This document shows positions 3,291 through 56,437 of a DNA stretch of 56,437 bases, one piece after another (the stretch's first letter is position 1; every line of letters begins with the position of its first letter). The translations under genes and the position numbers were made by a program. The DNA is taken from the NCBI GenBank assembly GCA_043814095.1, contig JBDRKI010000032.1:1-56437 (forward strand), read 5' to 3'. Below the pieces are notes generated by a model. The model was not told the origin of the DNA. It worked only from the letters and a program-made list of their open reading frames with translations, and searched no databases. This DNA is from Armatimonadota bacterium (GTDB lineage Bacteria; Vulcanimicrobiota; JACPDS01; JBDRKI01).

Positions 3291-3332
3291 TAATTAGTTA
3301 TTCTGTAAGAATATATTAATTCCTATAATATA

Positions 3333-3367
3333 AAAATCCGCCTTATTTATGATAATAGGCGGATTTT
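3333..3367 (-). terminator. Intrinsic terminator of the minus-strand HEAT/orphan block
   Basis: AAAATCCGCCT...AGGCGGATTTT inverted repeat with T-run, just past the stop at 3379. Confidence 0.75.
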
Positions 3368-3378
3368 ATAATGTAAAT

Positions 3379-3774: not shown

Positions 3775-3791
3775 GGACTGTTTCTCCTTTT

Positions 3792-5322: not shown

Positions 5323-5338
5323 AATATCACCTCTTTAA

Positions 5339-39834: not shown

Positions 39835-42800
39835 TCAATTCAGCTTATTATAAATTCCAAGCAGGATTTCCCGGATTTTCGGACCGATTTTTTTGGGCAA
39901 TCCTGTCATCAATGCCTTGAGCTCCTGTTCATCTAAGGGTTTTCCGGGATCATAATGCGCTAAAAATCCTCCCATATAAGAAGCAAAAAACTCATGAAAG
40001 AATGTCTGATTATTCCTTATTTTCCCGGGGAGTTTGGAAGTTAGAAGATTTATATCATCTTCTAATAATTCTTCAAAATAGCGTAAGATAAAGTGGGATA
40101 TTTCATGGAAAAGCTGATTTTTCGGTCCCTTTTCATCAAGCGCGCTTTCAAATATCCCGCCCTTTTTATAATTACAGCATACGATTTTCAAATCATCCCG
40201 GTAAACTCCTAATGCTTTTGCAGCTCCTAAAATAGCGCCTTTTTCATTTGTCTTAAGTCTATCAGCAACTATAATTAAGATCCCTTCTTTTTTCATTCCT
40301 TCTGTCACTTTAGCAGGCAGCATTTTAAGATCATTTATTATTTCCATCCTATCCCGGTATGAAACAGTACCCATTATCATATTATTAAGCTCTTTTTCTT
40401 CGGGAGAAAGATTTTTATATAACGGAGCTGTTATTTTCATATATTCTTTATGCCGTTCTCTCAGCTCTTTCTTTATATCAGGGCTGAATGAATTATATTC
40501 ACCAATAAGCTTGTTAACCTTATCAAGATTTTCTTCTCCAAGAATTGAAAAGATTTCCTCATTTAAATAAGCGGCTCCCTTTTTAAACTTGATAATAGGG
40601 GAGATCCTCATTATTTCTTCATCTTCAAGGCTTATATTTTTTTCTTTAAAGATACGGCTTAATTCACGTTTTAGCGCTTTAGCAGTATCATGTTGTCTGC
40701 AAAATCTGGTGATAATTTCTGTTCTAAAGTCTTCAGTAAACCATTCTGCTGTCTTCTCATAAGCAGCTTCGGGGTTTTCTTTAGATGCTTTTTCAAGAAT
40801 ATATTCTATTGAATCCTCTGCTTTCATGCGTACAGATTTGTTTGGATCATCTAAAACTTCTACAAGGTTGGGGATTAGATCTATTGCCGCGGCACCGAAA
40901 CCTCCTAACTCTTGGGCTGCGCTTGTACGCACGGTATCATGAGGATCTTTCAATGCTTTTGCAAAAGCGCTCAGGGTCTCTTTTAATGCGACTCCTGTTC
41001 TTCTTAGACCCCACAGGGCTTTTCCGCGCACCATAGGGTCAGGGTCATTTATTGCCGCATTTACTAATGTCTCTATAGCCGCGGGAGCTATATCTTTGGG
41101 ATAAGGAGCAAAGTCATATAAGAAGCCTGATACGGCTCTACGGGTAAACACATCATTACTTCCCATTGCCGCTATAAGGCCGAAAAGTTCTTTTTCTTTG
41201 CATATAGTTTCTTTAGTTTTCTCATGCGGGAATAGTCTTGGGCTTACAGAAGCAAATACTTTGACTGTATCTTCTAAAGTCTTAAATTCTTCCAGAATCT
41301 TATGATAGACTGTCAGGTCTTCAGGACTTTTTGCCATCAAGGGCAGATCGGCTCTCTTTGTTTTAGCGGATATAGAAGCATCTTCAAATAGATGAGGGTT
41401 ATTATTATATGCACCCGGGGTTGTGATAATAAGGTCTGCTTCTTCTGCCATCTTACCGGTAAGCTTTATGGCAGAAGAGTTTGTGCCTTCTTCTGCTTTA
41501 ATTACGACAGGTACAGCATTTATATTATCCTGTATGTTACAGTTCAGCAGGTTTTTAAAGGCAGCTGCAGCAGTGGCAGACTCTGCCTGGTTATCTTCAG
41601 TTACAAACAATACCTTTATAGGGGGTGTTTCATGGTTAAAAAACGCGTGTAAATCTTCAATTACTTCTTTGGTAAATTCCGGTGAGAATTTTTCAGTTTT
41701 GCGTGGTTTATTCAGTATTGCCTCAAAAAATCTATCCGGGGTTCTTTTGCCTTCTTTTATCTCAAGAAGTATATTAGTTATTCCTTCAGTTATTAAGTAT
41801 TCTCTGCTTTTATCTCTAAAATTCTTATGCAGTTCACTTCTGCGGAGTAAATAAGCGGGTAAATCTTGTGCAACTTCTTCAGGGCTCATCTCTATTTCTA
41901 TGATTTTTTGAGCATGCGGCTTTATCTTATCTTTTAGAATAATATTATTTTTAGCATATGAATGAGCATCAGAAGTTATGAAAATAATATCAAAGTCATC
42001 AAGATTTTTATCTGCCAGCAGTTTGCCGTCAGATACTCCGGCAGAGTCTACTTCAAATTTTCCGGAGAACAGCTCTTTAAATGTTTTTTCGGCATCTATG
42101 CTTCTTGTCTGATTAGCATTGCATACAAAAAGTACTTTTTTAACAGGTTTGCCTTCTATAGCTTTTTCAAAGATGTATACCGTAGAATCTATAAAAAGCA
42201 GTTGGTCTAGCTTCCGTGATATTTCACTGAAAAACTCAATAAAATTATCCTTTAATAGGCAATCACCTTTGGTATTATCTATAAGTATAAAATCTCTTAA
42301 AGCTTCTGCGAAACAGCTAACGGAGGTATCGGATTTTAAGAGCCTGCTTATTTCGGAATCGGCTTTCATATATTCAGTAAGTCCGTATTCCTCCAGCATT
42401 TCTCCCGATAAAGCTCTAACTGCCGCGGGCTCAATTTTAGATTGTAACGTTGTTTTCCATAGTTTTTCATAAAATTCTACAACCTTTTCCCACCCGTATT
42501 TTTCATTAACATTTTTAAATATCTGATAAAAAGATTTCCCCTTTACTCCTTCTATACCGGTAGCTTTCATTGAGGTTTTTATTGCAGTTGTCATTGTAGC
42601 TTTATTTGCTGGTTCCCCGTTCATGGGGGTAGTAGGCCTGGAGAATCCTTTGGCATCATTTGGTCTTCCCTCACCGTTGAATAATTTACTGACCGGGTCA
42701 GTGCCGGGTTTTGATGTAGGAGATGTATGGCCCTGTCTTGGTGCAGGCGGCTGGGGTTTTCCTTGTTCCCGCCATATAGCGTCGAAATTTTGCATAAGAT

Positions 42801-45800
42801 CAAAGAGTTTTTTATCCAGGCTTTTCAATTGTGCGGGATCTGAATAATAGAGTGTAAAAAGATCTGCAAAGAATTCATTTAAAGGTCTATCTTCAGAAAG
42901 AGCATCTATTTCTTTTGTTATGAATCCCTTGAAAGGTTTTCCGTTTATTTCGGCCTCTAGATATATTAAATAGCCAAGGTAATATTTATGTTTTGTAATT
43001 TTTACTTTATATCCTTCATCCAATTCTAAAAACAGTTCTTTGCCGTAAAGTGTACTTAAGGCATCATCATCTTCTAGATATTCAAACATTGTTGTATATA
43101 TAATAGATGACATTTCCAGTTTTGGAGCGATCATATCTTTAAAATCAGCAAACCAGCTTTTTATATAAGGTTTTTCCATTAATAATTTAAATACAGTATG
43201 AGCAATTTCGTGTAAAGTTGTACTTTGAGACTTATCACCGATATAAGCCTTATTATTTTTGGCAAAACCCGTAGTATGGCCTTTGAGTAAGTCTAAATTT
43301 TTCTGGATTTCCCGATCGGCAGGGTAGAAAATTATTTTAGAATTCCTTAAATTTAATTCACTGACAATTTTCGGAGGTAGTGGTTCTAATGCATTAATAA
43401 TAGCAGTTAAAGATGCGTCCTTAAGGATTTCCCCGTGTAACATATTTGTAATTTCTACAGGATATTGTCCTGCGTACTTTGTGGCGAATAATTTTCCATA
43501 GATGCCGCCCGATGTATGTTCTAATTCCTCAGCTTTTTTCTTAAATCTTTCAAAAACAGGTTCAAGTTTATTTAACTCTACATTAAAAACCATATTTACA
43601 GGACAAACATTCTGGTGGTAATGATATAATGCCTTATATATATTTATAACTTTCATTACCCCTTCGTATTCAAAGTTAAAAGCTTCTATAACATCATTAA
43701 AGTTTTTAGTTTTTAAATTTTCAAAATTTGAGATTGCAAGTTTTGCCGCAGATTCACATTCTTTTAACAGCTCTATAGTTATTTTGCTTACGGCAATCAT
43801 AAAAACATATTCTTCCGTATCGTATAGTTTTTCTTGTTCGTTTAATTCTAATATAAGGGCTTTTATTTTTTCTGTAGGATGTCCGAGTATTTCGAGTTTC
43901 TCTAAGAATTTGTTAAAATTACCGGCATAGTCTGCAGAAATACCCGGTTTATCTGTTTTTGCTTTTCTTAAAAGATCTGACCATGATTTTTCATTAAACT
44001 GTAATTCCGGGATTTCATATTGTCCCCAATCTTCCTCTGAATGAGAGAGAGCTTCTTTTTCGCCTATATAATTTTCTAAAATATACCCCTTTATATCTTC
44101 CTTAGTCTCAAGAGAATATTTATATACCATATGAGCTCTATATTTAATATCTGCAAAATTATTGCTTTGGAAAAGAATTAAAAGGTTGCTAGTAGAAGGA
44201 AATTTTATTGAAAAATCATTTTCTTTTGAGTTTTTCAGAAGTTGTTTCCATTCTTTTTGAATATTAATGTTTCTGAGAAGATTCGTCCATGGATAATCTT
44301 TACCCGCAATATCTCTGCCTCCGGGTGTGGGGCGGTTTGGTTTATCTGCTTTTGCTCCGGATACTCCCATTGTAGGATCGGAAGGTCTTGAAGTAGGAGA
44401 GATATGGTTGTGTAATGATGCAGGCTCTAATCTTCCTGTATCATTAGGTATCTCAATTACAAACCTTGCTCCATTTTTATATGAAGTATCTAAATATATT
44501 TCCCATCCGTAGTATGAGAGAAGCTCCCTTATTCTCCATAGCCCGTAGCCTGTGCCTCTTTCTCTGGTTGTAAATCCTTTTTCAAATATCTTTTCACTAT
44601 TCTCAGGAGGAACTCCGGGAGCGGTATCTTCTACAATTATCTTTCTTTTACCGGGTTCTGTTTCTGTTCTTAGGGTTATTGTATTATTTGAGCTTCTATC
44701 GGCCTCTTCTGAATTATCCAGTAAGTTTTTAAGCACAAACCTTAATAGTCTTGGGTTTGAGAAAACTTCAAAATTCCAGGGAATCTCGGTTTCAGTATTC
44801 ATATCATTATAGCAGTATCTTAAAAGTCTTCCGGAGAACTCTAAAAGAGGAATGCCTTCCCTTTCTTTAAGCATATCATCTTCTCTTATGGGAACAGATC
44901 TCTGCATATCTTCCATGGAGTAATGAATATAATCTAATCTATCCATTACCTCCGGGGAGATGTGTTCGCCTTCTTGAGACTTTATATCATTTACTATATC
45001 TATTATTTCCTGTGCTCTTTCAGGGAGGCTGTTAAGGAACAGGTCTATATCGGATTTTAAAACATTAGATTCATTCCCTATAATACCGTTGCCTAAGAAT
45101 ACCCTGCAATGTTCGTCACTGAAAGATTTTAATGCATCCTCTAGTCTTACTAAAAGGGGAGAACTGCGGGTTTGCTTAATTTCATATATGACGTCATAAA
45201 TGTGACGTAAATTAGGATTTAAAATATGGAATAGTTCTGCCTTTTCCGTGCTTGATATTCTTTCTTCAGGCGGTATATTATGGTAAATCTGTTTTGATAT
45301 AAGGTGGGTACCGGCTCTGCCATAAAACCTTTCAAACCTTTTTAGATTACCACTTTCCTCACAAGCTATGTGAGCTGCTTTTAAAAGCTCAGGCATAAGT
45401 TCTTCATCAATCTTTTTATCCAAAGCCTTTAGGGTTTCTTTCTGGTTCGGTGTCAGTCTGCTTTCCTTGCCGGCACTGAAAATTTGAGTGCTTGTGTTTA
45501 TAAGTTCTTCCCTGTATTTTAAGAGTTTATCTATATCGGTTGTTTGTGGTGTAGTTAATTTGCTGATCTTATGGGATAATGCTGTTATTTGAGGAGTTAA
45601 TGCATTTTCTATGGCAGGTGCGGGCTCTCTTTCATTTATTGATTGAGATAATTTAAAGTTTTCATAATTTGTACTTATGTAATATTCTTTCCAGTTCAGA
45701 TAATTATTGAATTTGAAGAAGCTGTCCTTCATATTCTGTATCATTTTTAACAGTCCGGCATCCTGTATGTTAAGGTTGTTGAAATCAATACTCTCAAATT

Positions 45801-48800
45801 CTGCCGCAGCTGCCCTTGCCTCTTTTATAAACTGTGAGAAGTCTTTACCAAAGGAATCATAAAAAGTTGATTTATCATAATTCCAGCAGTCCGTTATGGT
45901 AGTAAGTCTAGTATGCAAACTTTTTATCTCTGCAGATATGTTTTCTAAGGTTGATATTACATCCGGAGAAGAGAGGCCTGCTTCTTTAGGTTTTTTCTTA
46001 AGCTCTGTAAGGGATTCTAATATACATGGCATAAGTACGGTAATCCCGTCTTTCATAAACAGCAGTATACTGCCTTCGGTAGAAACACGCATAACAACGT
46101 TATTATGGGAAAGAGATGTGAGAAGTCTTGCTATATTCCTGTTGTTTTTAACCTCTTCGGGTAGAGGCTGGCTGAGTGCAATAATTTTCCTTCTAGTATT
46201 TTCTTCCAACTTTGTTAATCTCCTAAGGACATCATGGAAGTATTTATTAATAACTTCATCCTTAGCTGTTGATAACAGCAGGCTGCTTGCACTTATATCG
46301 GATATCTTGCAGGATTCGGTATAAAGTTTTGCCAGCTCTCCAAATATCTTTATAGAGTAAGTATGGTACATTATCATTTCGGTCTCTGTTAAACTCTGTT
46401 TCCTCCAGAGTCTATCCAGCCTTACAAACTCGCTTTTTATAGTTTTATCCAGGCATTTTGTTATAAAAGCGATATTGGATAATATTACTTCTCCGGGTTG
46501 AGTTGTAAATATTTCCAGTATAGAATTAAATTTTACAAAAGCGTTTGCAGAAGGATTTGAGATAAGCTCTGCTGTCTTTTCAGGGAGTGATACATTTACT
46601 ACAGGCTTTACTGTACTGGCAACCCTTCTTACATGGGCTTCCGGCAGCTCTATTATAAATTGTGCGCCTTTTCCGTAGGTGCCGTTTTCATATATCCTGC
46701 CACCTGCGGCTTCTACTCTTTCTTTGATGATGGGCAGGCCGATCCCGGTTGAAGCAGAAGATACACCTTCTTTCCAGATTGTTTCCTTGTTTATTTCAGA
46801 TACCTTACCGCTTCCATCAGGTTCTGCAGAAGGTATACCCGGGCCGTTATCGCCCAACATGATTCTTATCCAGCCGCGGGATTCTGTAACATGTATATAA
46901 ACACTGTATACTCTGTCTGTGTATTTTTTCTTATCTTCCGCAATCTGCCTGTTAAATGCATTCATTGCATTTTCTAAAAGGTTGTGGATTATAAAATTGT
47001 AGTTTTCCTGCTCTAAAAATTTCGGCATGTCCCTTGGAACAAGAACAGTAAAACTTACATAACTTTCATTTTTTAATGGTGCGGCTGCAAGCATACCGAC
47101 AGCACAGTGGGTTAAATAAAACGGAGAATCTTTTCTTGAAGATACATACCTGAGGATATTTTCGGAAAATTCGGCTATTGTTTTTTCTCTGGAACCCTCA
47201 GGCATCAAGCTTAAAATCTGAACAGCAGCTCTTCCGGGGTTATCAAGTAAGATATCAATTAATTCTTGAAAGATTTCGGGTTTAGAAATGATAGTTTCAG
47301 CATTTTTAAGTTCATTTTTTACCTTCTGCAGTAGATTATCAATTTCTACAATCCCGGAGATTAATTCATGCAAGTTTTCTGTTAGTTTTTGAGTTAGGTA
47401 AGGTTCTTCTAATTTTTCATACTTATAATTATTAATATCAAATAAAGATTCGCTTTTGGTAATAAGCTCTTTTGCTTTTTTAAGAATAACTTCAAGTTCG
47501 CTTTTAAGTGTTTCGGGGCCTTTCAGATATTTTATAGCAGTGTCTAAAATTGATACAAATCCCTTTTGAATTGCAGTTCTTATTTCGTGTGTCACTATAG
47601 AAAGTTTTCTGGATGCAGCACCGGAGATCTCTTTTTCCGGTTCTACAGGTGTAAGATCAATTTTAAACCTTGTACCTACACCCGGGGTGCTTTCTATAGA
47701 TACTCTTCCTCCGTAAGATTCTGCAATCTCCTTTATATGATGGAGCCCCTGGCCTGTTCCTCCTTCTGTTACGCCTTGAGTCCAGACAGATTTGGTATTA
47801 ATTGGAGGTATCTCGCCGTTAGCATCAGGTTCTGCAGAAGGTATACCCGGGCCGTTATCTTGTACCATAAGGTATTTTTCATTATCAGCATGGACATTTA
47901 TAGTGATGCAGTATGTTTTATCTTTGTATTTCTCAGGATCTTTTTCTATTTCCCTGTTAAAGGCATTTATGGCATTTTCAACAAAGTTTTGAACTGTAAA
48001 TTCAAAATCATCAGGCTTCATTAACCGGGGACAGTCTCTTTCAACATAAACACAGAATTTAACATGACTTCCGTTTTTTAATTTTGTAGCCTGGAATGTA
48101 CTGGCAACGGAGTTGGCAATATAAAAAGGACCATCCTGTCTGGAAGAAATATATGATTTAATATTTGCAGGAAGTCCTTCTTTGATCTTTTCAGCGGATG
48201 CTGAAGGTATAAGTGGTAGAACCTGAAGCATAGCTATTGCCGGTAGTCTGAGAGCAGTATCTATCTCTTTTCTAAGTTCATCTGTAAGATCTTTGCCTTC
48301 TCTTTCGTATTTAGCTTCTCTTAAGCCGCTTTCTATATCCTGCATCATATTATTAATCTCTATAATTTGTGAGGCAAAATAAGTTAAGAATCCTGTAAGT
48401 TTCTGTGTGAAATGCGGTTCTTGTGCATATATTCCCGTGAAGTTTTTATCAGTCAAAGTATCATCCAGTTCCTTATATAATAAACCCGATTTGGTTATAA
48501 TATTTCTTATGATTTGTTTTATTTCTTCATTGCCTGATATAAATCTAAAATATTTATGTAGATGACTAGCAATACCGACTAAAGGCGCTCTTAGGTGATG
48601 AGTTGTCCTGGAGAGCTGTTTTGTATTTGCTGTATCTTTAGCGGGCATAGCTGCGTCTTTACCCGCATCCATTGAAAGCACTGTTGTTTTTATTTCAGGC
48701 CTTACTTCCTGCGGTGCAGGCACGATACCCCCGCCTGCTACTGCAACAGCTGGTTTGGGCACAAACAGGTCTGCGGCTTTCTGGAGGAGGTTTCTTTTTC

Positions 48801-51800
48801 CTGTTCCGCCTGACGGGGGAGGAGGTCCTAAAGGATCATCGGGTCTATTAGGATTTATACCCGGCCAGTTTACTTTCAGTTCTTTAGGTTCTGTAAGTTC
48901 ATTTAAAAGATTATTTAGATGTCTTCTTCCCTGACCGTTTAATTTATTATTGTATAAATCTTCAAATAAAGATCTGAGAGTATCAAGTACATCTTTATCG
49001 GGTATCTTATAATGTATTTTTAATGCGTTATAATACTGTGAGCTTCTGCCTTCTGCCATGTAGTCATGCAAAAGATTATAGAAAACGGAGGAAGACTGTT
49101 CCAGTAATTCCGGGGGATTGTTAAGGTTTAAAGTCTTTCTAAGTATGTCTTTATAGTATTCCGTAAGTACGGCTGTTGTAACCTTAAATTTTATATCAGT
49201 AACTTCTTTTGTTTTTAAAGACATCTCGCCGACATCTACATTTAATAAAACTCCTTCGCAGGTTTTATAGTATTCTTTAAGAAATTCCGGAGTTATGTTC
49301 TGTTCGTCTTTATACGGGTTTAGGACAGCCCCTATTTTGTTTTTTGCGTCATTTAGGATGCTGTTTGTTAATACAGCCCTGTTTTCTTCTGACATAACAT
49401 CATTAGCTGCGTCTACGGCTTTAGGGGGAAGTATTTTCTTTAATTCTTCTCCGTAGTATTTAAGTAGTTCCTGGTAATATTCCACAACCTTTTGATTGGC
49501 GGGTTCTTTTTCCATTGTTCCGTATAGCTTATCGACCGTATCCATGAGCAGGCTGAAAGGTTCCATATGATCTTTTGTGCCCATCTCCAGGGGTTTCAAT
49601 TTTTCATACAGTTCAAGCCCTGTTTTATAATAAAATTCTCCTGCAAGTTCGTACTGTCTGTGTTTAAAAGCAAGGTCACCTGCTTTTATTTTTTCATGGA
49701 AGGTTTCAGCTTTAGCATAAATTTCTAAAAGATGCTCATGGCTAAGGGTTTTGAAAAGTGCACCTTTAACACGGTCTATAAATCCCGGGGTTACGGGGTA
49801 GGGGTCTTTTTCTCCCGGATAATCTTTACCCGCAATATCTCTGCCTCCGGGTGTGGGCCGGTCAGGTTTATCTGCACGTCCTCTGAACGGGCCTGTTGTA
49901 GGATCTGATGGTCTTGAAGACGGGGGAGTATGCCCCGGTCTTTCCGGGGATGTGTGGCGTACAGAAATTTCCATACGGCCCATCTCTTTATATAAACCCT
50001 GGAGGAGTTTTATCAGTTCTCTTACATCAGGAAGCAGATTCTGATTGTTTTGGAAGAATCTGTTCTCGATTATTTCTGATTCAGGTATCATCTCTGTTGC
50101 CAGAATATCACCCTGCTCCTGGCTCATCATAAAATCGGTAAAGCAGTCTGCAAAGAACATGCCTAAAAGTGTATTTTCAGGCATTCCCTGGTCAATGTAA
50201 GTTTTTAAATAGGGTTTGGAGTATATAAAGTTTCTTATGTTCTGGATCTTGTCATATAGTACTTCACTTTTGGAAGCGGAATAGAGTATTGCATAAGCTG
50301 TTGCATTAAATACATTTTCGGGAGTGAAATGTCTTGTATTATAATCAAGATTTTCTATCCCGAGAGATATTGTTCTGCTGTGCGCTTTGGTTTCAGCGGG
50401 TATTATCCCGGTTCTTTCCCCGAACCCTATATCTGTTATATACATCCAGCCCTTGCTTTTAAGGTATCTTATAAGGGGGCGGGGGAGCTGTTCAAGTATA
50501 TTTATAAGTTCTATACGCCAGTCTTTGCGGAAATTGCCAAAAAGCATCTGGTTTATCTCTTTCTGACGGTCGGTCAGAGTGTTCTGAAAGCCTTCTGAAT
50601 TTTTCAGGTATTCAGACTGCATAACGCGCAGGAGCTTTCTCATCTGCGGAGCTGTCCTGTTCAGCTCCGCAACAAGATTTATAATTTCGGCTCTGGCTTC
50701 TACTTCTAAAACATGTGTATCCCTTATTTCAAATCTGCCTGTTCCCTGATTAAAAGTTATAATCTCAAAAAAATCTACATTATTTCTGTCTAATAGTCTG
50801 TTAAGGGTGTTTTCCAAATCCTTAATATTCTCAGAGATCTGTCTTGCTTGAACAAATTCATCGGTTGTTAAGAACATAGAAGATTCGTAAAGGTTCTGCA
50901 GTTCATTAATATGGAATTCCAGCATATCCGGAGGTATATTTAAAGCTTTTGCTATTTTTGTCCGGGTTTCTGCATCTGAGGTAAGTATTTTATTAAGTAT
51001 ACTTACAGGATCTTTTACTTTGAATTTCTGTGCAAGTTTCTGCAGGCTCTTAGGATCAAAACCAAATGTTAATTTACTGAAATCACCAGAGCTGTAATTT
51101 TTACCGAGTTCCTTTAAAAAATTAATTTCCTGTCCTGTTAAAGAACCGCACTTGGCAAATGAGGACATAAGGTTTTTAAAACCTTCTAATTGCATTGCCG
51201 TGGGAACTTCCGGTACGGCAGGTGCTCCGCCTGCGGGTACGGGGCTGGGGACCCCGCCTATGGAACCCGCAATATTATTTATGCCTCTGGCTGCCTGTGC
51301 CGCTGCATCTTCAATAAATCCAGGATTGCCGCTGCCCGGGAACCAGCGTTTTATCCATCCTCTAATCCAGCTGCCCAAAGTTCTTTTGGGCGGTTTTGTT
51401 ATTCTGCCGCTGTCTTTTCTTTTCGGTTGGGATGGGGGATCGGTATCATCCGTTTTTCCGATTGCTTCTTTTATTTTAGATATTGTATCTTTTAATTTAG
51501 GATCTTCTGATATATCATCAGGTATCTGCTTAAGCAGTTTTGAAATCTCTTCGCATTCTTTTTGTTCAAGGTATGCTTTATTTGTAAGCAGGGCTATTCT
51601 GTCCGCAATATCTTTATAATATTTGTCTATTAAGGTATTGATATTTTGTACTATTTCGCTTTTTAATTTAAGGTCTTCTGTTTTTTGGAGAAGAGCGCGG
51701 AATTCTTTAAGTACCGCATTGCATTTAAAAATATATCTGTTAATGGTCTTAAATGATATATCTTTTATATCCATTAGTTTGTTTAAGGTTTCAAAGCTTT

Positions 51801-54800
51801 TTTGAGAAACTTCTGAAAATTCTTCAGTTTCACAGCATGCCGATACGGCTTTTTTAAATTTTACCAGTTTGATTTTTAAAGCATTATCTTCCAGTACTTC
51901 ACCGGGTATATTATTTAGAAGTTTTAACAGTTCTTTGAGCTTATTTGCGGTGGGGGTATCGTTTTCTGATCCGAGATTAACTAAAGATTCCAGCTTATTC
52001 AGCAACCCCGGATAAAAATTCTTCCTGAAGTATTTTTTTATTCCCCGCACTTGCGGCTTTGTCTCTTCTTTTAAAGCATTATCTTCCAGTTTTTCCGCTG
52101 TTTCGAACAGTTTGTTTAGTCTTTCAATATATTTTTGAACCGTTTCAATATTCCATTCGGTTACAGAGGTGTAATCGGAATAAAACTGTTCTTTTTTAGA
52201 AAGCAGGGAGGTTACTTTCTCTTGTTCTATTTTAAGTTTTCTTAAAGTACTTTTATCGGGTGACGGAGTTTTTACTTCGGGCTTAACCGGTTCTGTTTCG
52301 GGTAAGGGACTAGCTTCCTTAAGAGGGACTGTTCTTTTTTGTATGCTAAATTCAAGGTCGAGCCCTTCAAACCATACTTTAACCTCGTATTCTCTGGCCG
52401 GGAAATATTTATAAAGGAGTTTTTCTAATCCTTTGGGATCTATGTTCTTATCAATATAATCTGAGACTTTAATATAGATTTCCGTTAATTTTTCATCAGG
52501 TATCCCAAATTGAGATTGAAGTTCTGTCAGTTTCCGGAAGTAATGGTCTTTATTGAATAACCTGCCGGCTGTTGTGCGGATAGTCCTGTAAAGAGGCGTG
52601 CATGAGGGGAGAAGATCTTGCCTTTCACGTATGGCATCCATATAATCATCATGCAGTAAAAAGAACCTGTACAGGATGACCTTATAGATCCCGTTTTCTT
52701 TTACTACCGAAAACATAATACGGCTGCCGGTATCTTTACCCGCCTGTACGGATCCCAGCTTTATCCCCTCAGGCCCTTTATATTGCTGCAGCGTTTTAAA
52801 CTGGTAAGGATTATCCCCGGTAGGTATTGCCGTTTTATGGGTCTGCTTACAAAAATCCCTTTCTATTATTTCAGGGGAAATATTCCCTTTTTTAAATATT
52901 TCTCCCAGAACTTCTAAAAGACGCGCTTGATATTCTTTAGGAAGAGACTGAAGATCATTTAAATATTTGCCTCTGCGGTCTATTTCTACATGGATTGGCA
53001 TGTTGTTTTCCCTGAAAGCGTTATTAATCTTATCAAGTTTGCGAGTTAGGTCGTTAAGGCTTTTTAATTCATCTTCATTATAGACCAGGCACTGAAATAA
53101 AGTTTCATTTATGGCCGGAATGTCTGTTTTTCTAAAACCCAGCCTGAAGAACGCGCCTGTGATATAATGATGTTTGAATTTTTTTATAAAATTTACAATA
53201 TCCGTTATTTTTGTTTGCTTGTCATCTGTTAGTTTTCTAAAATCGTCTTCAAGGGCAGCCAGAACTTCTTTTGTCTGCGGTGTTTTGGGTATTTGCAGGA
53301 CATTATTAAAATAATTGCCCAGATCTTTAACGGCAGCTTGTAAGTCTTGAGGTTTTAGGGCAAACCGCTTAACCAGGCTTTCTAATTCTTTTAAAGAAGT
53401 TTCAAGGCTGGATTCTTGTGCCGAGGACTTAATGCTCTTTAACGCTTCTGTAACCTCTAATATTTTAATGCCGTTAAAGCAGTGCGCGTTTGCTATTAAA
53501 CTGTCGACAAGACGGGTGATTCTTTCTTCAAGGCGTTTCCTTGTTTTTATTGACGGTGTCGCTTTTGACAGTTTGGTAGTTAAGATTCCATATAGGACTT
53601 GTTTTTCTTCCAGTAAGACTTCAAATAGCAGAGTTTCAAAAAAGTAATTTGCTGTTACGGGATTTAAATCGATTTTTTTGTCTATAAATGTTTTTCTTAA
53701 TAAGAAATTGTTCATTACGCATTTATAGATAACCTCTATGGGTATGGTATCTATTATTCTAAATGCTTCTTCGGGCAGTATGCTTCTTAAATCATACAGT
53801 CCTACTTCTATGTCATACTTAGGAATATGGCCGCGGCTTCCGTTTGTGCCGTTCATGGCCAGCGTTGCCGGTGTAACCGGTTTGCCGAGACCTGAAGAGT
53901 TTGCTCCTGCGGGGGCAAATGCAAGAGGAGGCGGCAAGATTGTTTTAAATATACCGGGCTTTTTCCCGTTTTCGGCAGCAGGCGGATTATCTTTTTTTGT
54001 TTTGCCTGATTTCGGAATGCTGTCCGGTGGTTTTTGGTATCTATTTCTAATAAGTTCCAGTTCTGTTTTTCCGAGTATCTTGCTTGCCTGGTCTTCAGGT
54101 CCTATTTCTCTGAGAAGCCATTCTAATAACTCTTGTGCTTTAAGCAGGTAAGTATCAGTTAGCCCCGGAGTTATATTATTTAACTTGTTGGATTTATATA
54201 ATTCATCTAACTTCTTATAAAGATCGGGGTAATAAGTATAGACAAGAGAATGCTGTATTTTTAATAATTCTTTTTTAGAATCAGTATTGAGATTTTCCAT
54301 TGAAAATTGATTCAGTGTAGATTCAAGCAGTCTGTTACATGCACAAAGATAATTATTTAATATCACGACATTGTATTTTTTATATCCTTTATAAGTATCC
54401 AGGTTTCTAATCTGTCCGCTATAAAGTACATTTATATTTATTTTAAAGGTTCCGTCGTTTGAGCCAGGAGCAGAGCTCCTCTTAAATTCAGGTTTTTCAA
54501 GTCCTCCGGCTTCTCCATGTGTTGCATTATTCTGCATAATAGGAGGAACAACAGGGACTCTCATACCCTGCGGGCTTACACCTGCCGGCCTTTCAGCCGC
54601 AGCTTGGGGTTGAGGTATAATATTACCCAAACCTTTTTTAAATGTATCTAGGGTAGATTTTGCACAGCTTTTAGCCGCATCAAGCGCTTCTTTAGCGGCA
54701 GCGGGCATTTTTCTTTCAGGCACTTTATGCGGAGCCGGTTTATCGGTGCCTGTAACAGTAGGTGCGGAAGGCGGCTTGCCGCCTTTATCTTTCTTTTTCT

Positions 54801-56437
54801 TCTCAGTTTTCTTCTTCTTTGCTTCTTTGAATTTATTAAAGTCAATAACATTATCAGGTTTTGCTTTTGCTTTGGTTTTAGTATGTGTTCTTACAGATTC
54901 CGGAATAGCGGTATCGGTAGGTGCTTTCAGGTGCATTACTTTTACTACTTTACCGTTTGATGTAAGAAGGGCTAATCCGCTTCTTACGGCTATATCTATA
55001 TTCTTAGGTTTTAAACCGTGCATTGTTATCAGTTTTAAGACGGTATCGGTCTGTTCTCTGGTAAGAGGGGTATTGTTAATGTAGAATTTGAGCCCTTCTT
55101 TAGTATCCCTTACTTCAAGAGCAAAATCGCCTTTTTTAGGTACAATACCCAGCTCGCCTAATTCTGTGAATATTGCTTCTGTCTTATGGGAATTCAGCCT
55201 TACATTCCCTGTCTTATTATCCATTACGGATAATACCGTCTCACCGTTTAAAACCTCTGCCCTTAATTTAAGGTTTCCGCCTTTAGCCTGTTCAGGCCTT
55301 ATGCCGTTTTTAAGGAGAGCTTCTATTAAGGGTTTGCTTGATGAATGTGAATATATTGTATCGTTTATTGATACATAGACATTTCTTTTGCTGTCTTTAT
55401 GCAACTTGATATTGAATTCTATGCTTTTGCCTTTAAAATGAGCAGGCAGATGGCTTAACATTGACGCAATAAGTATCCCCTGGAATGAGAAGTATGCAGA
55501 TATTTTAAGATTATCACCTGAGCTCATTGTATGTTTAAACTCATCAATTAAGCCTTCAAGGCCTTCATAGGATGAGAAATTCCATACAAAGAGCTTTGCG
55601 GCAAGGGGGTTAACGGTGCAGTGGAACATCATTGCGGGGAAATCATATGCCATGCCTTTAGCCGCGCCTATAACAAGCTCGGCTACATATCTTTCGGGAC
55701 TGCCTGAAGCCTGTATATCTTTTATTATCTCGTTCTGTGTGCGGATGTACCCCGGCATGGCAGATTCTATATCCTGAACCCCGTCAGATGTTTTCTTATG
55801 GGCGAAAGATAACTTATCTGTATCTACGGTAGTTATCTTGCCAGACCTATTATCTTTAAAGCTTAAGGTTTTAGTATTTTTAAGATATCCGGCTATATCT
55901 GTAAGGGATTTATTCCCTTTAACAGGTTTAAGAAGAAGTAAAAATCCGGGCGCTATCTCTAATGCGTTAGAATTTTTACTCAAGTTTACTTTTTCTTCTA
56001 TTACTTTATGAGATATTATCTTGAATAAGCTTTCTTTGAATTCATTTTCAGTTTTTTGAGCTAATGTTTTGTATTCTTTAACAGGAGCAGTAAAATCATG
56101 CCTGTTATTATATGTGACAACATCTACCGCCGCTTTAAATGCGGTTGTTACTGCATCCGCATCGGGACCGTATTTTTGTTTCATTTTCTCATTAGCGGCT
56201 ATATATGCCCTGCCTGCCCTGGGAGTTTTAGCGATAAGGATAAGTATCTGATCAAGTTTTTCTACTAAAGCGTTTAAAGGCGCTGTATCCTGCCATCCTT
56301 TCTTTTCTTTCTTCATTCCCAGCGTTACCGCGTGAGTTTTTTTAATCTTAACGGTTTTGTTTGTGCGTTTGTCCACTGCAGTTATTATATCTTTTTCAAT
56401 CTTTACGATATTGTATCTATCCTTTAAGCCTGCAAGG
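39835..56437 (-). CDS. Giant multidomain protein (>5533 aa, 5' end outside window): RelE-like domain, 3 zinc-peptidase modules, 3 histidine kinase modules, 2 LMW-PTP domains, HEAT repeats
   Basis: Single frame without stops from window edge to TGA at 39835. HEIAH (43198-43212) and HEISH (40093-40107) each with downstream EFFA; three N/G1/G2 box sets; VLFVCNANQTRS; HEAT units. Confidence 0.9.
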   Translation of the reverse strand, partial: LAGLKDRYNIVKIEKDIITAVDKRTNKTVKIKKTHAVTLGMKKEKKGWQDTAPLNALVEKLDQILILIAKTPRAGRAYIAANEKMKQKYGPDADAVTTAFKAAVDVVTYNNRHDFTAPVKEYKTLAQKTENEFKESLFKIISHKVIEEKVNLSKNSNALEIAPGFLLLLKPVKGNKSLTDIAGYLKNTKTLSFKDNRSGKITTVDTDKLSFAHKKTSDGVQDIESAMPGYIRTQNEIIKDIQASGSPERYVAELVIGAAKGMAYDFPAMMFHCTVNPLAAKLFVWNFSSYEGLEGLIDEFKHTMSSGDNLKISAYFSFQGILIASMLSHLPAHFKGKSIEFNIKLHKDSKRNVYVSINDTIYSHSSSKPLIEALLKNGIRPEQAKGGNLKLRAEVLNGETVLSVMDNKTGNVRLNSHKTEAIFTELGELGIVPKKGDFALEVRDTKEGLKFYINNTPLTREQTDTVLKLITMHGLKPKNIDIAVRSGLALLTSNGKVVKVMHLKAPTDTAIPESVRTHTKTKAKAKPDNVIDFNKFKEAKKKKTEKKKKDKGGKPPSAPTVTGTDKPAPHKVPERKMPAAAKEALDAAKSCAKSTLDTFKKGLGNIIPQPQAAAERPAGVSPQGMRVPVVPPIMQNNATHGEAGGLEKPEFKRSSAPGSNDGTFKININVLYSGQIRNLDTYKGYKKYNVVILNNYLCACNRLLESTLNQFSMENLNTDSKKELLKIQHSLVYTYYPDLYKKLDELYKSNKLNNITPGLTDTYLLKAQELLEWLLREIGPEDQASKILGKTELELIRNRYQKPPDSIPKSGKTKKDNPPAAENGKKPGIFKTILPPPLAFAPAGANSSGLGKPVTPATLAMNGTNGSRGHIPKYDIEVGLYDLRSILPEEAFRIIDTIPIEVIYKCVMNNFLLRKTFIDKKIDLNPVTANYFFETLLFEVLLEEKQVLYGILTTKLSKATPSIKTRKRLEERITRLVDSLIANAHCFNGIKILEVTEALKSIKSSAQESSLETSLKELESLVKRFALKPQDLQAAVKDLGNYFNNVLQIPKTPQTKEVLAALEDDFRKLTDDKQTKITDIVNFIKKFKHHYITGAFFRLGFRKTDIPAINETLFQCLVYNEDELKSLNDLTRKLDKINNAFRENNMPIHVEIDRRGKYLNDLQSLPKEYQARLLEVLGEIFKKGNISPEIIERDFCKQTHKTAIPTGDNPYQFKTLQQYKGPEGIKLGSVQAGKDTGSRIMFSVVKENGIYKVILYRFFLLHDDYMDAIRERQDLLPSCTPLYRTIRTTAGRLFNKDHYFRKLTELQSQFGIPDEKLTEIYIKVSDYIDKNIDPKGLEKLLYKYFPAREYEVKVWFEGLDLEFSIQKRTVPLKEASPLPETEPVKPEVKTPSPDKSTLRKLKIEQEKVTSLLSKKEQFYSDYTSVTEWNIETVQKYIERLNKLFETAEKLEDNALKEETKPQVRGIKKYFRKNFYPGLLNKLESLVNLGSENDTPTANKLKELLKLLNNIPGEVLEDNALKIKLVKFKKAVSACCETEEFSEVSQKSFETLNKLMDIKDISFKTINRYIFKCNAVLKEFRALLQKTEDLKLKSEIVQNINTLIDKYYKDIADRIALLTNKAYLEQKECEEISKLLKQIPDDISEDPKLKDTISKIKEAIGKTDDTDPPSQPKRKDSGRITKPPKRTLGSWIRGWIKRWFPGSGNPGFIEDAAAQAARGINNIAGSIGGVPSPVPAGGAPAVPEVPTAMQLEGFKNLMSSFAKCGSLTGQEINFLKELGKNYSSGDFSKLTFGFDPKSLQKLAQKFKVKDPVSILNKILTSDAETRTKIAKALNIPPDMLEFHINELQNLYESSMFLTTDEFVQARQISENIKDLENTLNRLLDRNNVDFFEIITFNQGTGRFEIRDTHVLEVEARAEIINLVAELNRTAPQMRKLLRVMQSEYLKNSEGFQNTLTDRQKEINQMLFGNFRKDWRIELINILEQLPRPLIRYLKSKGWMYITDIGFGERTGIIPAETKAHSRTISLGIENLDYNTRHFTPENVFNATAYAILYSASKSEVLYDKIQNIRNFIYSKPYLKTYIDQGMPENTLLGMFFADCFTDFMMSQEQGDILATEMIPESEIIENRFFQNNQNLLPDVRELIKLLQGLYKEMGRMEISVRHTSPERPGHTPPSSRPSDPTTGPFRGRADKPDRPTPGGRDIAGKDYPGEKDPYPVTPGFIDRVKGALFKTLSHEHLLEIYAKAETFHEKIKAGDLAFKHRQYELAGEFYYKTGLELYEKLKPLEMGTKDHMEPFSLLMDTVDKLYGTMEKEPANQKVVEYYQELLKYYGEELKKILPPKAVDAANDVMSEENRAVLTNSILNDAKNKIGAVLNPYKDEQNITPEFLKEYYKTCEGVLLNVDVGEMSLKTKEVTDIKFKVTTAVLTEYYKDILRKTLNLNNPPELLEQSSSVFYNLLHDYMAEGRSSQYYNALKIHYKIPDKDVLDTLRSLFEDLYNNKLNGQGRRHLNNLLNELTEPKELKVNWPGINPNRPDDPLGPPPPSGGTGKRNLLQKAADLFVPKPAVAVAGGGIVPAPQEVRPEIKTTVLSMDAGKDAAMPAKDTANTKQLSRTTHHLRAPLVGIASHLHKYFRFISGNEEIKQIIRNIITKSGLLYKELDDTLTDKNFTGIYAQEPHFTQKLTGFLTYFASQIIEINNMMQDIESGLREAKYEREGKDLTDELRKEIDTALRLPAIAMLQVLPLIPSASAEKIKEGLPANIKSYISSRQDGPFYIANSVASTFQATKLKNGSHVKFCVYVERDCPRLMKPDDFEFTVQNFVENAINAFNREIEKDPEKYKDKTYCITINVHADNEKYLMVQDNGPGIPSAEPDANGEIPPINTKSVWTQGVTEGGTGQGLHHIKEIAESYGGRVSIESTPGVGTRFKIDLTPVEPEKEISGAASRKLSIVTHEIRTAIQKGFVSILDTAIKYLKGPETLKSELEVILKKAKELITKSESLFDINNYKYEKLEEPYLTQKLTENLHELISGIVEIDNLLQKVKNELKNAETIISKPEIFQELIDILLDNPGRAAVQILSLMPEGSREKTIAEFSENILRYVSSRKDSPFYLTHCAVGMLAAAPLKNESYVSFTVLVPRDMPKFLEQENYNFIIHNLLENAMNAFNRQIAEDKKKYTDRVYSVYIHVTESRGWIRIMLGDNGPGIPSAEPDGSGKVSEINKETIWKEGVSSASTGIGLPIIKERVEAAGGRIYENGTYGKGAQFIIELPEAHVRRVASTVKPVVNVSLPEKTAELISNPSANAFVKFNSILEIFTTQPGEVILSNIAFITKCLDKTIKSEFVRLDRLWRKQSLTETEMIMYHTYSIKIFGELAKLYTESCKISDISASSLLLSTAKDEVINKYFHDVLRRLTKLEENTRRKIIALSQPLPEEVKNNRNIARLLTSLSHNNVVMRVSTEGSILLFMKDGITVLMPCILESLTELKKKPKEAGLSSPDVISTLENISAEIKSLHTRLTTITDCWNYDKSTFYDSFGKDFSQFIKEARAAAAEFESIDFNNLNIQDAGLLKMIQNMKDSFFKFNNYLNWKEYYISTNYENFKLSQSINEREPAPAIENALTPQITALSHKISKLTTPQTTDIDKLLKYREELINTSTQIFSAGKESRLTPNQKETLKALDKKIDEELMPELLKAAHIACEESGNLKRFERFYGRAGTHLISKQIYHNIPPEERISSTEKAELFHILNPNLRHIYDVIYEIKQTRSSPLLVRLEDALKSFSDEHCRVFLGNGIIGNESNVLKSDIDLFLNSLPERAQEIIDIVNDIKSQEGEHISPEVMDRLDYIHYSMEDMQRSVPIREDDMLKEREGIPLLEFSGRLLRYCYNDMNTETEIPWNFEVFSNPRLLRFVLKNLLDNSEEADRSSNNTITLRTETEPGKRKIIVEDTAPGVPPENSEKIFEKGFTTRERGTGYGLWRIRELLSYYGWEIYLDTSYKNGARFVIEIPNDTGRLEPASLHNHISPTSRPSDPTMGVSGAKADKPNRPTPGGRDIAGKDYPWTNLLRNINIQKEWKQLLKNSKENDFSIKFPSTSNLLILFQSNNFADIKYRAHMVYKYSLETKEDIKGYILENYIGEKEALSHSEEDWGQYEIPELQFNEKSWSDLLRKAKTDKPGISADYAGNFNKFLEKLEILGHPTEKIKALILELNEQEKLYDTEEYVFMIAVSKITIELLKECESAAKLAISNFENLKTKNFNDVIEAFNFEYEGVMKVINIYKALYHYHQNVCPVNMVFNVELNKLEPVFERFKKKAEELEHTSGGIYGKLFATKYAGQYPVEITNMLHGEILKDASLTAIINALEPLPPKIVSELNLRNSKIIFYPADREIQKNLDLLKGHTTGFAKNNKAYIGDKSQSTTLHEIAHTVFKLLMEKPYIKSWFADFKDMIAPKLEMSSIIYTTMFEYLEDDDALSTLYGKELFLELDEGYKVKITKHKYYLGYLIYLEAEINGKPFKGFITKEIDALSEDRPLNEFFADLFTLYYSDPAQLKSLDKKLFDLMQNFDAIWREQGKPQPPAPRQGHTSPTSKPGTDPVSKLFNGEGRPNDAKGFSRPTTPMNGEPANKATMTTAIKTSMKATGIEGVKGKSFYQIFKNVNEKYGWEKVVEFYEKLWKTTLQSKIEPAAVRALSGEMLEEYGLTEYMKADSEISRLLKSDTSVSCFAEALRDFILIDNTKGDCLLKDNFIEFFSEISRKLDQLLFIDSTVYIFEKAIEGKPVKKVLFVCNANQTRSIDAEKTFKELFSGKFEVDSAGVSDGKLLADKNLDDFDIIFITSDAHSYAKNNIILKDKIKPHAQKIIEIEMSPEEVAQDLPAYLLRRSELHKNFRDKSREYLITEGITNILLEIKEGKRTPDRFFEAILNKPRKTEKFSPEFTKEVIEDLHAFFNHETPPIKVLFVTEDNQAESATAAAAFKNLLNCNIQDNINAVPVVIKAEEGTNSSAIKLTGKMAEEADLIITTPGAYNNNPHLFEDASISAKTKRADLPLMAKSPEDLTVYHKILEEFKTLEDTVKVFASVSPRLFPHEKTKETICKEKELFGLIAAMGSNDVFTRRAVSGFLYDFAPYPKDIAPAAIETLVNAAINDPDPMVRGKALWGLRRTGVALKETLSAFAKALKDPHDTVRTSAAQELGGFGAAAIDLIPNLVEVLDDPNKSVRMKAEDSIEYILEKASKENPEAAYEKTAEWFTEDFRTEIITRFCRQHDTAKALKRELSRIFKEKNISLEDEEIMRISPIIKFKKGAAYLNEEIFSILGEENLDKVNKLIGEYNSFSPDIKKELRERHKEYMKITAPLYKNLSPEEKELNNMIMGTVSYRDRMEIINDLKMLPAKVTEGMKKEGILIIVADRLKTNEKGAILGAAKALGVYRDDLKIVCCNYKKGGIFESALDEKGPKNQLFHEISHFILRYFEELLEDDINLLTSKLPGKIRNNQTFFHEFFASYMGGFLAHYDPGKPLDEQELKALMTGLPKKIGPKIREILLGIYNKLN
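44291..44406 (-). repeat. Intragenic linker repeat, copy 2 (SRPSDPT..ADKP.RPTPGGRDIAGKDYP)
   Basis: 44291-44331 identical over 41 nt to 49817-49857; similarity extends about 116 nt. Confidence 0.9.
46640..48620 (-). repeat. Tandem duplication of a ~336-aa histidine kinase module
   Basis: 37-nt identity at 46815-46851 and 47823-47859 (offset 1008 nt); colinear protein similarity across both units. Confidence 0.88.
49817..49932 (-). repeat. Intragenic linker repeat, copy 1
   Basis: Matches 44291-44406. Confidence 0.9.

Follow-up and report, generated by a model that had tools for sequence, protein, structure and literature searches.

A chromosomal family of giant multi-enzyme genes with predicted kinase, phosphatase, RelE-like and zincin modules in an uncultured bacterium

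Introduction

Among described systems, the closest in layout to the gene analysed here are the polyvalent proteins of phages and conjugative elements, which, in the part of the article available to us (Iyer et al. 2017, PMC5512222), commonly carry 1–5 interspersed zincin metallopeptidases (MPTases), proposed to process the polypeptide and tied to lethal factor by HHpred, and in some cases RelE-like (BECR-fold) RNases. Our subject is a giant open reading frame (ORF) at one end of a contig of 56,437 nucleotides (nt), JBDRKI010000032.1 of assembly GCA_043814095.1, which was analysed as a whole and is called the window hereafter. It is secure that this is a real giant gene and that it belongs to a family of giant genes. 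Its interpretation is tentative: our analysis points, with a probability that we would put at roughly 0.45, to a conflict-type, polyvalent-like multi-effector polyprotein, probably processed by its own zincins. In common with the polyvalent proteins, as that article presents them, the window gene has many unrelated enzyme domains in one very long chain, interspersed HExxH zincins, a RelE-like domain (found in some of them) and a proposed self-processing. It differs in being chromosomal, with no mobile-element genes around it; in matching nothing in PHROGs and BFVD beyond kinase families; in having paralogs, since its small genome holds at least five giant genes; and in being dominated by kinase and low-molecular-weight protein tyrosine phosphatase (LMW-PTP) modules, the term ‘Histidine kinase’ occurring 0 times in the main text of PMC5512222.

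Giant multi-enzyme genes have so far been reported mainly from Omnitrophota, where the proteins are membrane-anchored and rich in carbohydrate-active domains; those considered here come from another lineage and encode soluble proteins, with a content of the signalling and toxin type (kinases, LMW phosphatases, ATLF-like proteases and a RelE-like domain). The Omnitrophota giants (‘Archaeovorins’) are described as beads-on-a-string enzymes from small uncultured genomes, with high divergence and assemblies that break inside the genes, all of which applies to the window gene too, and HEAT_2 and HATPase_c, both represented among its tiled enzyme domains, are among their most frequent domains in the sections of the preprint available to us (West-Roberts et al. 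2023, bioRxiv 10.1101/2023.11.21.568195). Multi-enzyme giants with HEAT scaffolding form a described class according to the accessible part of a second preprint (Nielsen & Lui 2026, bioRxiv 10.64898/2026.06.07.730766), in whose catalogue 94% of the long proteins have a transmembrane (TM) helix or a signal peptide. Many TM helices and signal peptides, SecA_DEAD and C39 domains, glycosyl-transferase/hydrolase content and lengths of 30,000–147,000 amino acids (aa) characterize the Omnitrophota giants in what these sources offer, whereas the window protein has none of those features and measures about 5,900 aa, the largest piece in its genome reaching at least 8,565 aa. The nearest named relative of its lineage, moreover, is labelled Armatimonadetes, not Omnitrophota.

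With the MARTX toxins the window protein has in common serial effector domains in one chain and a presumed need for processing, but glycine-rich RTX repeats at the two ends (Pfam and NCBIfam, E≤0.1), the inositol-phosphate-activated C80 cysteine protease domain (Pfam, E≤0.1) and adjacent genes for a type I secretion system (T1SS) or an acyltransferase are absent. The traits of polymorphic toxins (RHS/CDI) are missing as well: there are no RHS/YD or haemagglutinin repeats, the C-terminus is a predicted zincin and no immunity-like gene pattern is seen. At the level of single modules, the terminal one is similar to the ATLF/M34 zincins (PPEP-1/2/3, anthrax lethal factor) and to M90 MtfA in predicted fold, in its HExxH motif and in a downstream helix with a Glu, but ATLF/M34 enzymes are secreted and stand-alone, whereas the window zincins are embedded in a giant chain and fall below the Pfam ATLF cut-off. 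RelE/ParE type II toxins resemble another module in predicted fold, yet this one has neither a Pfam match nor an antitoxin gene and is, again, part of a giant protein. Compared with two-component sensor kinases, the gene has HATPase_c domains above cut-off and lacks both sensor domain and receiver.

An initial annotation, drawn from the letters of the window, had put the gene forward as a candidate MARTX-like effector platform of a new type. The beads-on-a-string, multi-enzyme architecture and the conflict-type domain set (RelE fold, ATLF-like zincins, kinases, phosphatases, dead copies) stand; the MARTX label does not, in view of the missing repeats, protease and secretion genes. Its own remark that RTX, RHS and haemagglutinin motifs were not seen in the visible part agrees with our Pfam scans at E≤0.1, and the one on the lack of a cysteine-protease autoprocessing motif is right as to a C80 protease but overlooked the HExxH modules as possible processing enzymes.

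Results

Extent of the giant gene

The assembly consists of 129 contigs (2.50 Mb, 99% complete, 1.4% contaminated), of which the window is one, C32; other contigs are designated in the same way, and residues are numbered as in the window part of the giant ORF. Gene extent and joins were read from the short-read assembly sequence. The ORF (39835..56436, minus strand) runs for 5,533 codons without a stop and off the contig edge, which gives 5,513 aa within the window if GTG 56376 is taken as start. It is real, because a stop-free run of this length cannot come from chance in DNA of 38% G+C. The right end of C127 is the reverse complement of the C32 end over 32 exact bases, no 21-mer of the overlapping C32 end is found elsewhere in the assembly, and the join keeps the frame, with 5,965 codons from stop to stop. 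Since the context GGGGGAG-N3-TTG/GTG, followed by M-G-(L/I)-Y-D, is common to four giant genes (with starts on C127, C48, C90 and C56), the TTG at C127:26578 is the most likely start; if the first ATG is chosen instead, the product has 5,906 aa. The expectation that the frame stays open to the edge and that the protein exceeds 5533 aa is thereby borne out. The features of the window part are listed below from the N- to the C-terminus.

39835..56437, minus strand: window portion of the giant ORF, 5,533 codons and the stop; 5′ part on C127, full length ~5,931 aa from the TTG
54481..55215, minus strand: repeat segment, aa 408-652, including linker 1 (aa 544-652); also at the 5′ ends of C86 and C63
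53815..54042, minus strand: linker 2, Pro/Gly-rich, aa 799-874; carries a copy of the junction cassette
52642..53034, minus strand: predicted RelE/ParE-fold domain, aa 1135-1265 folded, core ~1146-1265 (Atlas, AlphaFold2, Foldseek, VIA-align)
51157..51411, minus strand: linker 3, Pro/Gly-rich, aa 1676-1760 (composition)
49981..51156, minus strand: degenerate ATLF-like zincin, aa 1761-2152; HExxH and downstream Glu motif both gone
49753..49980, minus strand: linker 4, Pro-rich, aa 2153-2228; near-repeat in common with linker 6
48724..48909, minus strand: linker 5, Pro/Gly-rich, aa 2510-2571 (composition)
47632..48624, minus strand: histidine-kinase core 1, H-box-like THHLRAPL plus HATPase_c
46582..47631, minus strand: histidine-kinase core 2, THEIRTAI plus HATPase_c; abuts core 1
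44410..45459, minus strand: histidine-kinase-like core 3, HATPase_c at aa 3895-3998; phospho-acceptor His uncertain
44275..44409, minus strand: linker 6, Pro-rich, aa 4010-4054 (composition)
42793..44274, minus strand: zincin module, HEIAH (aa 4409) plus NEFFAD; ATLF-like on weaker evidence
42604..42792, minus strand: linker 7, Pro-rich, aa 4549-4611 (composition)
41656..42159, minus strand: LMW-PTP-like phosphatase with intact CX5R(S) P-loop (Pfam, profile, alignment)
41146..41637, minus strand: dead LMW-PTP-like copy, Cys to Thr and Arg to Glu (alignment)
40807..41097, minus strand: HEAT repeats (Pfam)
39838..40809, minus strand: C-terminal ATLF/PPEP-like zincin (predicted), HEISH (aa 5444) plus HEFFAS (AlphaFold2, Foldseek, VIA-align, hhalign)

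A family of giant genes

The single giant protein of the initial annotation is real, but its membership in a multigene family had been missed. The genome contains at least five giant genes, with at least 27,700 codons and at least 83 kb, i.e. about 3.3% of its length. Eight ORF pieces, each 1,200 aa long or longer, run up to contig ends, and exact 141-nt overlaps join them: C86 and C106 together give 8,565 aa with both ends open (the largest piece), C90 and C30 give 5,055 aa with the start included, and C56, C61 and C25 give a complete gene of 3,129 codons. C78 carries a C-terminal piece of 2,075 aa, whose first residues align about 230 aa into the head domain, and C90 holds, just upstream of the next giant gene, the last 419 aa of another one. 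A fifth head, of 359 aa and 77% identical to that of the window gene, lies at the end of C48 (74186-75272), where it is open, and probably belongs to a gene continuing in C86 or C63. Two pieces on C63 (C63a and C63b) are halves of one gene, the frame shifting by one base where a run rich in A occurs within an ATLF-like zincin module (C63:3445-3465), which could be a sequencing error, the mark of a pseudogene or a site of programmed frameshifting. C32 itself is not a collapsed node, because it crosses with a sequence of its own the repeat that it shares with C86 (95% nt identity over 695 nt) and with C63 (90% over 538 nt).

What unites the family is a stock of shuffled modules, the head domain, a DNA motif ahead of the genes and a linker cassette that recurs. 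In BLASTP comparisons, modules recur among the giant genes in differing orders and with 21–74% identity, so that homologues with shuffled module order, which the initial annotation had proposed to look for, exist as paralogs in the same genome. These paralogs bring HisKA, at least six further HATPase_c stretches, four further LMWPc modules and one Peptidase_M16 module. The last is found in the giant gene on C90 (2081-5680; M16 and M16_C, E 4e-54 and 2e-46), and the window gene has no such module.

The motif, GTTAACAAnnTGTTAACAATTTGGCAAYAT, is located upstream of the four assembled giant-gene starts (C127:26501, C48:74118, C90:11752 and C56:2657) and of about 11 ordinary genes; among the 24 TTTGGCAAYAT sites, 15 have the GTTAAC context. 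It looks like the signature of a regulon or of a lineage-specific promoter class. A sigma-54 reading was dropped by eye, the spacing being unfit. As a more general observation, metagenome-assembled genomes (MAGs) built from short reads hide such families as fragments at contig ends.

Kinase, phosphatase and HEAT modules

Pfam and NCBIfam were scanned with six overlapping tiles of the window ORF at E≤0.1; domain assignments cover about half of the chain, and two modules were folded. The first 2,200 aa gave no Pfam or NCBIfam match above any cut-off. In the unannotated modules, nine short tiles run against Pfam at E≤10 revealed no RelE, peptidase or other credible family, and phmmer searches of PDB chains with the modules aa 4055-4548, 5210-5533 and 875-1675 returned nothing meaningful at E≤1.

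The three kinases of the initial annotation all correspond to HATPase_c domains: Pfam places one at aa 2808-2928 (E 7e-18) and two stretches in the tile 3001-4200 (E 3.3e-30; best stretch aa 3895-3998), the middle one being assigned by NCBIfam to aa 3171-3275, and the Pfam scores, 65.5 and 105.2 bits, are to be compared with a cut-off of 26.4. Each core has its N, G1 and G2 boxes intact. An H-box-like His can be recognized by eye in the first two cores (THHLRAPL, THEIRTAI) and is doubtful in the third; Pfam HisKA has no match in the window gene, while it does match in the paralog on C86. Pfam scans detected no PAS, GAF, transmembrane or receiver domain in the protein or its neighbours and no receiver or sensor domain in any of the giant-gene pieces. 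Cores 1 and 2 adjoin without a linker and might pair with each other, forming a pseudo-dimer within the molecule where a homodimer would be usual.

For the CX5R phosphatase, Pfam LMWPc matches at aa 4768-4802 with 24.1 bits against a cut-off of 23.2, over the first 40 of 144 model positions, and the CX5R(S) signature, at aa 4772 within the P-loop VLFVCNANQTRS, is intact. Aligning the five phosphatase copies of the family showed C-X5-R-S in four of them; the exception is the second copy of the window gene, in which Cys is replaced by Thr and Arg by Glu in the P-loop (aa ~4945), as expected of the dead copy that had been noticed earlier. A profile of the five copies retrieved 55 PDB sequences at E≤0.1 (best E 3.6e-12), all of them LMW-PTP/YwlE/ArsC entries apart from one chain named RpiB; as regards the general-acid Asp loop of the C-terminal part, the alignments stop near profile position 108. 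The HEAT repeats predicted next to the phosphatases were found by Pfam at aa 5114-5210 (E 6e-13). A separate HEAT-repeat protein of 248 aa is encoded elsewhere in the window (3792-4538, minus strand; HEAT_2, E 3e-21).

Zincin modules

The two intact HExxH modules are present as announced, at aa 4409 (HEIAH) and aa 5444 (HEISH). Each is followed by a motif with a putative Glu ligand, judged from the sequence: HEISH...HEFFAS in the terminal module and HEIAH...NEFFAD in the middle one. Seven paralogous copies of the C-terminal module were aligned and made into a profile (A2). HExxH is kept in four of the seven and lost in three (window aa ~1950, one copy in C30 and one in C86), and the downstream (H/N)EFFA(S/D) motif is kept or lost in step with it. 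The alignment thus confirms that the degenerate zinc-peptidase module at aa ~1950 is a paralogous copy of the terminal zincin, one that has lost both HExxH and the downstream Glu.

The AlphaFold2 model computed on A2 has a predicted local distance difference test score (pLDDT) of 78.4 and a predicted template modelling score (pTM) of 0.74. When it was compared with the PDB by Foldseek, rows 1-40, with E 0.17-1.0 and probabilities of at most 0.98, contained nothing but PPEP-1/Zmp1, PPEP-2 and PPEP-3, and anthrax lethal factor came next. A VIA-align search of 48,161 chains ranked PPEP-3 first (Z 8.8), then PPEP-2 (8.0), the N-terminal part of anthrax edema factor (7.8; chain residues 64-277) and that of Certhrax (7.6); ranks 5-9 were lethal factor (7.4, 7.0 and 7.0), 3dl1, a “putative metal-dependent hydrolase” (6.5) which we take to be MtfA-like, and another putative zinc peptidase (5.6). 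In these predicted-fold comparisons the family coherence of the top nine is complete despite their middling Z. In BFVD the fold search gave no match at E≤0.001 (best row E 0.32, probability 0.38).

Sequence profiles lead to the same family. Against 1.84 billion representatives, A2 found 11 proteins at E≤0.001, six of which are pieces from its own genome; three of the remaining five are low-complexity or unrelated, and two are small Pfam-ATLF proteins (E 3.4e-13 and 1.3e-6). With hhalign, A2 and a small ATLF-family protein align with a probability of 90% over a span that includes the LP-strand motif and HExxH, the strand motif ‘...LP..V...L...G..I’ of A2 lining up with its counterpart. A relative of the same order (G001) has a stand-alone 324-aa protein that scores 59.9 bits with Pfam ATLF and matches A2 at E 1.4e-4. 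This protein (contig C218 of that relative, 1248-2222) contains HEFAH and EYFAES and is a possible free-living counterpart of the zincin module of the giant genes. No module of the window gene reaches the gathering score of Pfam ATLF (PF07737), even in the scans at E≤10, so that the ATLF link is transitive, because it passes through the matches of A2 to stand-alone and small Pfam-ATLF proteins. With this proviso, the terminal module is assigned, by its model, to a predicted ATLF/PPEP-like (M34-like) zincin fold. For the middle HEIAH module (aa 4055-4548) the evidence of an ATLF-like nature is weak: hhalign to A2 gives a probability of 56% (E 1e-4), leads from the language-model Atlas go to zincin/ATLF/M90 clusters (0.89-0.92), and its paralog on C30 has a sub-threshold Pfam ATLF score (23.6 bits against a cut-off of 27.4); the module may be ATLF-like. 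Here, as for all modules, catalytic competence is presumed from motifs.

The RelE-like domain

The RelE-like region has no Pfam match, and to this extent the early designation is not backed by family models; its fold, in contrast, finds support in predictions. Every Atlas lead (0.87-0.88) goes to RelE/ParE/YoeB/YafQ clusters. An AlphaFold2 model made from two sequences shows a beta-alpha-alpha-beta3 topology with a 26-residue insert of low confidence; its best Foldseek match is the archaeal RelE 1wmi_A (E 4e-4, probability 1.00), and VIA-align ranks 1-24, over the same 48,161 chains, are by entry title toxins of the RelE/YoeB/HigB/YafQ/ParE type or proteins in which such a domain occurs, with Z 6.1-4.0. 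A moderate-confidence model thus suggests that aa ~1146-1265 adopt a RelE/ParE fold. Its C-terminal third has two Arg, one His and one Tyr that do not vary between the two paralogous copies. No antitoxin gene lies next to the giant gene.

Linkers and hydropathy

The repeated Pro-rich linkers seen in the initial annotation amount to seven segments between modules, defined here by their Pro/Gly content. A junction cassette recurs in eight linkers of five gene pieces, with a fixed order of elements: a helix ending in GLG, then (I/L)xPxP, VTP(Q/E)G(I/L)xMPV and M(A/S)M(D/N/S)(G/A)G. In the window gene it occupies aa 585-643, 823-873, 1719-1757 and 2545-2599. The modules that flank it are just ~21-30% identical, which suggests a constraint on the linker cassette itself. 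PVTPQG occurs 4 times in the 27,687 aa of giant pieces and 12 times in 778,877 aa from control ORFs; this count was set aside as evidence, the pattern having been drawn from the same data.

Transmembrane and signal-peptide calls rest on Kyte-Doolittle hydropathy in 19-residue windows, not on DeepTMHMM. Over the 27,687 aa of the giant pieces no helix is of transmembrane grade: the maximum, 1.62, is reached at window aa 3455-3474, within a module of the kinase region, and is the sole value ≥1.6. The hydrophobic helices reported at 230-310 are moderate only, with a maximum of 1.28, and do not qualify as transmembrane. At the N-terminus, counted from the TTG start, hydropathy reveals no hydrophobic signal-like segment.

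Genomic setting and relatives

In this genome secretins are matched four times, TolC-like ORFs number six and SecA occurs once in canonical form, all of them away from the giant-gene contigs; SecA_DEAD (PF07517) is matched by that canonical frame of 864 aa and, weakly and below threshold, on C97, which carries no giant gene either. The nearest named FtsZ (82% identity) comes from a MAG labelled Armatimonadetes, which behaves as the same genome as G001, and the phylum label rests on the title of that record.

Relatives of the gene were sought at several levels. Among 30 related genomes (one of the same order, G001, the other 29 of the same phylum only), none matches the first 2,000 aa. Among 1,083 scored candidates of 3,043-9,683 aa, the whole protein matched nothing but itself; the 8,000 shorter candidates for its N-terminal 2,500 aa contained a single match, the own-genome piece C63a, and of the 7,999 candidates for the head profile the one that matched was again an own-genome piece. 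No head was confirmed behind 89 pattern matches in genome contigs and 593 in metagenome contigs, collections from which the records of this genome may be absent. The head, the N-terminal half and the whole protein were thus found to be without detected relatives in billions of public proteins, and the family has so far been seen only in this uncultured bacterium; since searches seeded by words lack sensitivity to remote homologues, the claim is limited to close or moderately distant relatives. By title and abstract, no literature on giant genes in Armatimonadota appeared among the matches listed, and supplementary domain tables of the papers cited above might hold similar kinase/phosphatase/zincin architectures.

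Discussion

The product of the gene is a complete and soluble protein of about 5,931 aa, devoid of a signal peptide, in which shuffled enzyme modules are joined by Pro/Gly-rich linkers. As a conflict-type polyprotein it would work as follows. The ATP-dependent kinases, the phosphatase and the RelE-like RNase would have to act in a cytoplasm, which could be either that of a foreign cell, reached via some export route, or the bacterium's own. The interspersed zincins would cut the chain at the linker cassettes and so free the modules, or would themselves be effectors. The fast shuffling of modules, the dead catalytic copies, the expansion of paralogs and the lack of relatives elsewhere argue together for a role in inter-organism conflict, i.e. 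an arms race, over a housekeeping one. In the absence of a signal peptide, a TM helix and secretion genes, delivery into another cell can only be inferred, so that of the delivered polyprotein first proposed, the effector-type domains stand and the delivery does not yet. A bolder version, which we consider distinctly doubtful, would make of these genes a new self-processing class in a deep-branching lineage: from each of several chromosomal giants, another cell would receive kinases and phosphatases together with ATLF-type proteases and a RelE-like domain that cleaves mRNA, with PPEP-like zincins cutting the linker cassette and an export that dispenses with a signal peptide and with any known injection machine.

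Several observations weigh against the reading as a conflict polyprotein. There is no signal peptide, no transmembrane segment and no recognized secretion or trafficking domain. On C32 and C127 the gene is surrounded by the dcw cell-division cluster, by glycosyltransferase genes and by genes of metabolism; extending the gene, as had been proposed, did locate its start, but among the 42 neighbouring ORFs scanned (25 + 17) there is no secretion, phage or conjugation gene, and searches of this 99%-complete genome for the VipB, Phage_sheath_1 and VirB4 families came back empty. PHROGs returned kinase-type families and one function-unassigned family over the phosphatase P-loop and nothing else, hence no phage link; PADLOC gave weak matches only (SduA, E 8e-4; PDC-S46, E 1.2e-4; a HEAT-ARM family over the HEAT region, E 1.6e-7); and with BFVD included, none of the three ties the gene to phages or defence systems. 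As to the modules, the E-values of the zincin model in Foldseek against the PDB are weak (none at E≤0.001, the best being 0.17), its VIA-align Z of 7-9 is “middling” by the scale of the tool, and the RelE model has a pLDDT of just 63 with catalytic residues not established. Published PPEP substrates, as far as PDB titles name the peptides, are unlike the junction cassette. A reading of the linkers as Pro-Pro cleavage sites was rejected: 12 of the 21 PP dipeptides lie in linkers, but linkers were chosen by their Pro/Gly content, which makes the argument circular.

The same data can be looked at from the side of the cell itself. The giant proteins would then be signalling scaffolds of its own cytoplasm, i.e. 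hubs of kinases, phosphatases and proteases in which histidine-kinase cores form pseudo-dimers, HEAT repeats serve for docking and dead copies are regulatory pseudo-enzymes. The missing signal peptide, TM helix and secretion context fit this view, as do the intact ATP-binding boxes, the H-box-like motifs and the direct junction of the first two kinase cores; YwlE, one of the PDB matches, exemplifies the cytoplasmic regulators of the LMW-PTP family, and the occurrence of the upstream motif at about 11 ordinary genes makes the giant genes look built into the regulation of the cell. However, the giant pieces all lack a detected receiver or sensor domain, a RelE fold and ATLF-like zincins are what one typically meets in toxins and effectors, and such extreme lineage restriction and shuffling are unusual for housekeeping signalling. 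On balance we regard the scaffold as somewhat unlikely.

An actual secreted toxin of the MARTX or polymorphic type, exported by a T1SS, translocating itself and processing itself, is quite unlikely, the gene having failed as a member of these families. Serial effector-like domains and the six TolC-like ORFs of the genome speak for it, and T1SS substrates need no N-terminal signal peptide. Yet RTX/HemolysinCabind, the C80 protease and RHS and haemagglutinin repeats are all missing at Pfam E≤0.1, no ABC transporter, membrane fusion protein (MFP) or TolC gene is adjacent, and no immunity-like gene pattern is seen. Moreover, RTX substrates are acidic and poor in Cys, whereas the present chain is slightly basic (848 K+R against 810 D+E) and has 41 Cys.

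We hold it for very unlikely that the protein is a cell-surface or extracellular scaffold like the giants of Omnitrophota, used for the attachment and digestion of prey. Pro-rich linkers are common in extracellular scaffolds. HEAT_2 and HATPase_c are frequent in those giants, and HEAT-scaffolded multi-enzyme giants have been described, as far as the two preprints cited in the Introduction could be consulted. But the window protein has no TM helix or signal peptide, in contrast to the 94% given in the accessible part of the 2026 catalogue; the giant genes contain no SecA_DEAD domain and, in Pfam scans, no glycoside hydrolase, dockerin or adhesin domain; kinases need ATP; and the phylum differs, with a nearest named relative labelled Armatimonadetes. 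Finally, an artefact of assembly or binning, whether separate genes fused or foreign contigs binned, is extremely unlikely: although the assembly is in 129 contigs, those with giant genes break at repeats and the C127-C32 join relies on just 32 nt, there are 5,533 stop-free codons in a single contig that also bears the dcw cluster, C32 differs from C86 (95%) and C63 (90%) all through the repeat, the join is in frame with a 32-mer unique within the assembly, many contigs carry one and the same promoter-like motif in front of giant and ordinary genes alike, and giant genes are physically joined to housekeeping genes on C32, C127, C25 and C48.

Whichever of these readings holds, a multigene family without detectable relatives offers a compact system in which to follow, module by module, how shuffling builds giant proteins, and it bears on the questions of whether embedded zincins process the chains that contain them and of what arrays of histidine kinases do without receivers.

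Downstream of the giant gene, two stretches with small ORFs (window 38338-38996 and 39278-39748, minus strand), the second of them a 156-aa ORF with no Pfam match, suggest by eye a nucleotidyltransferase/HEPN-type pair and a further nucleotidyltransferase-like protein.

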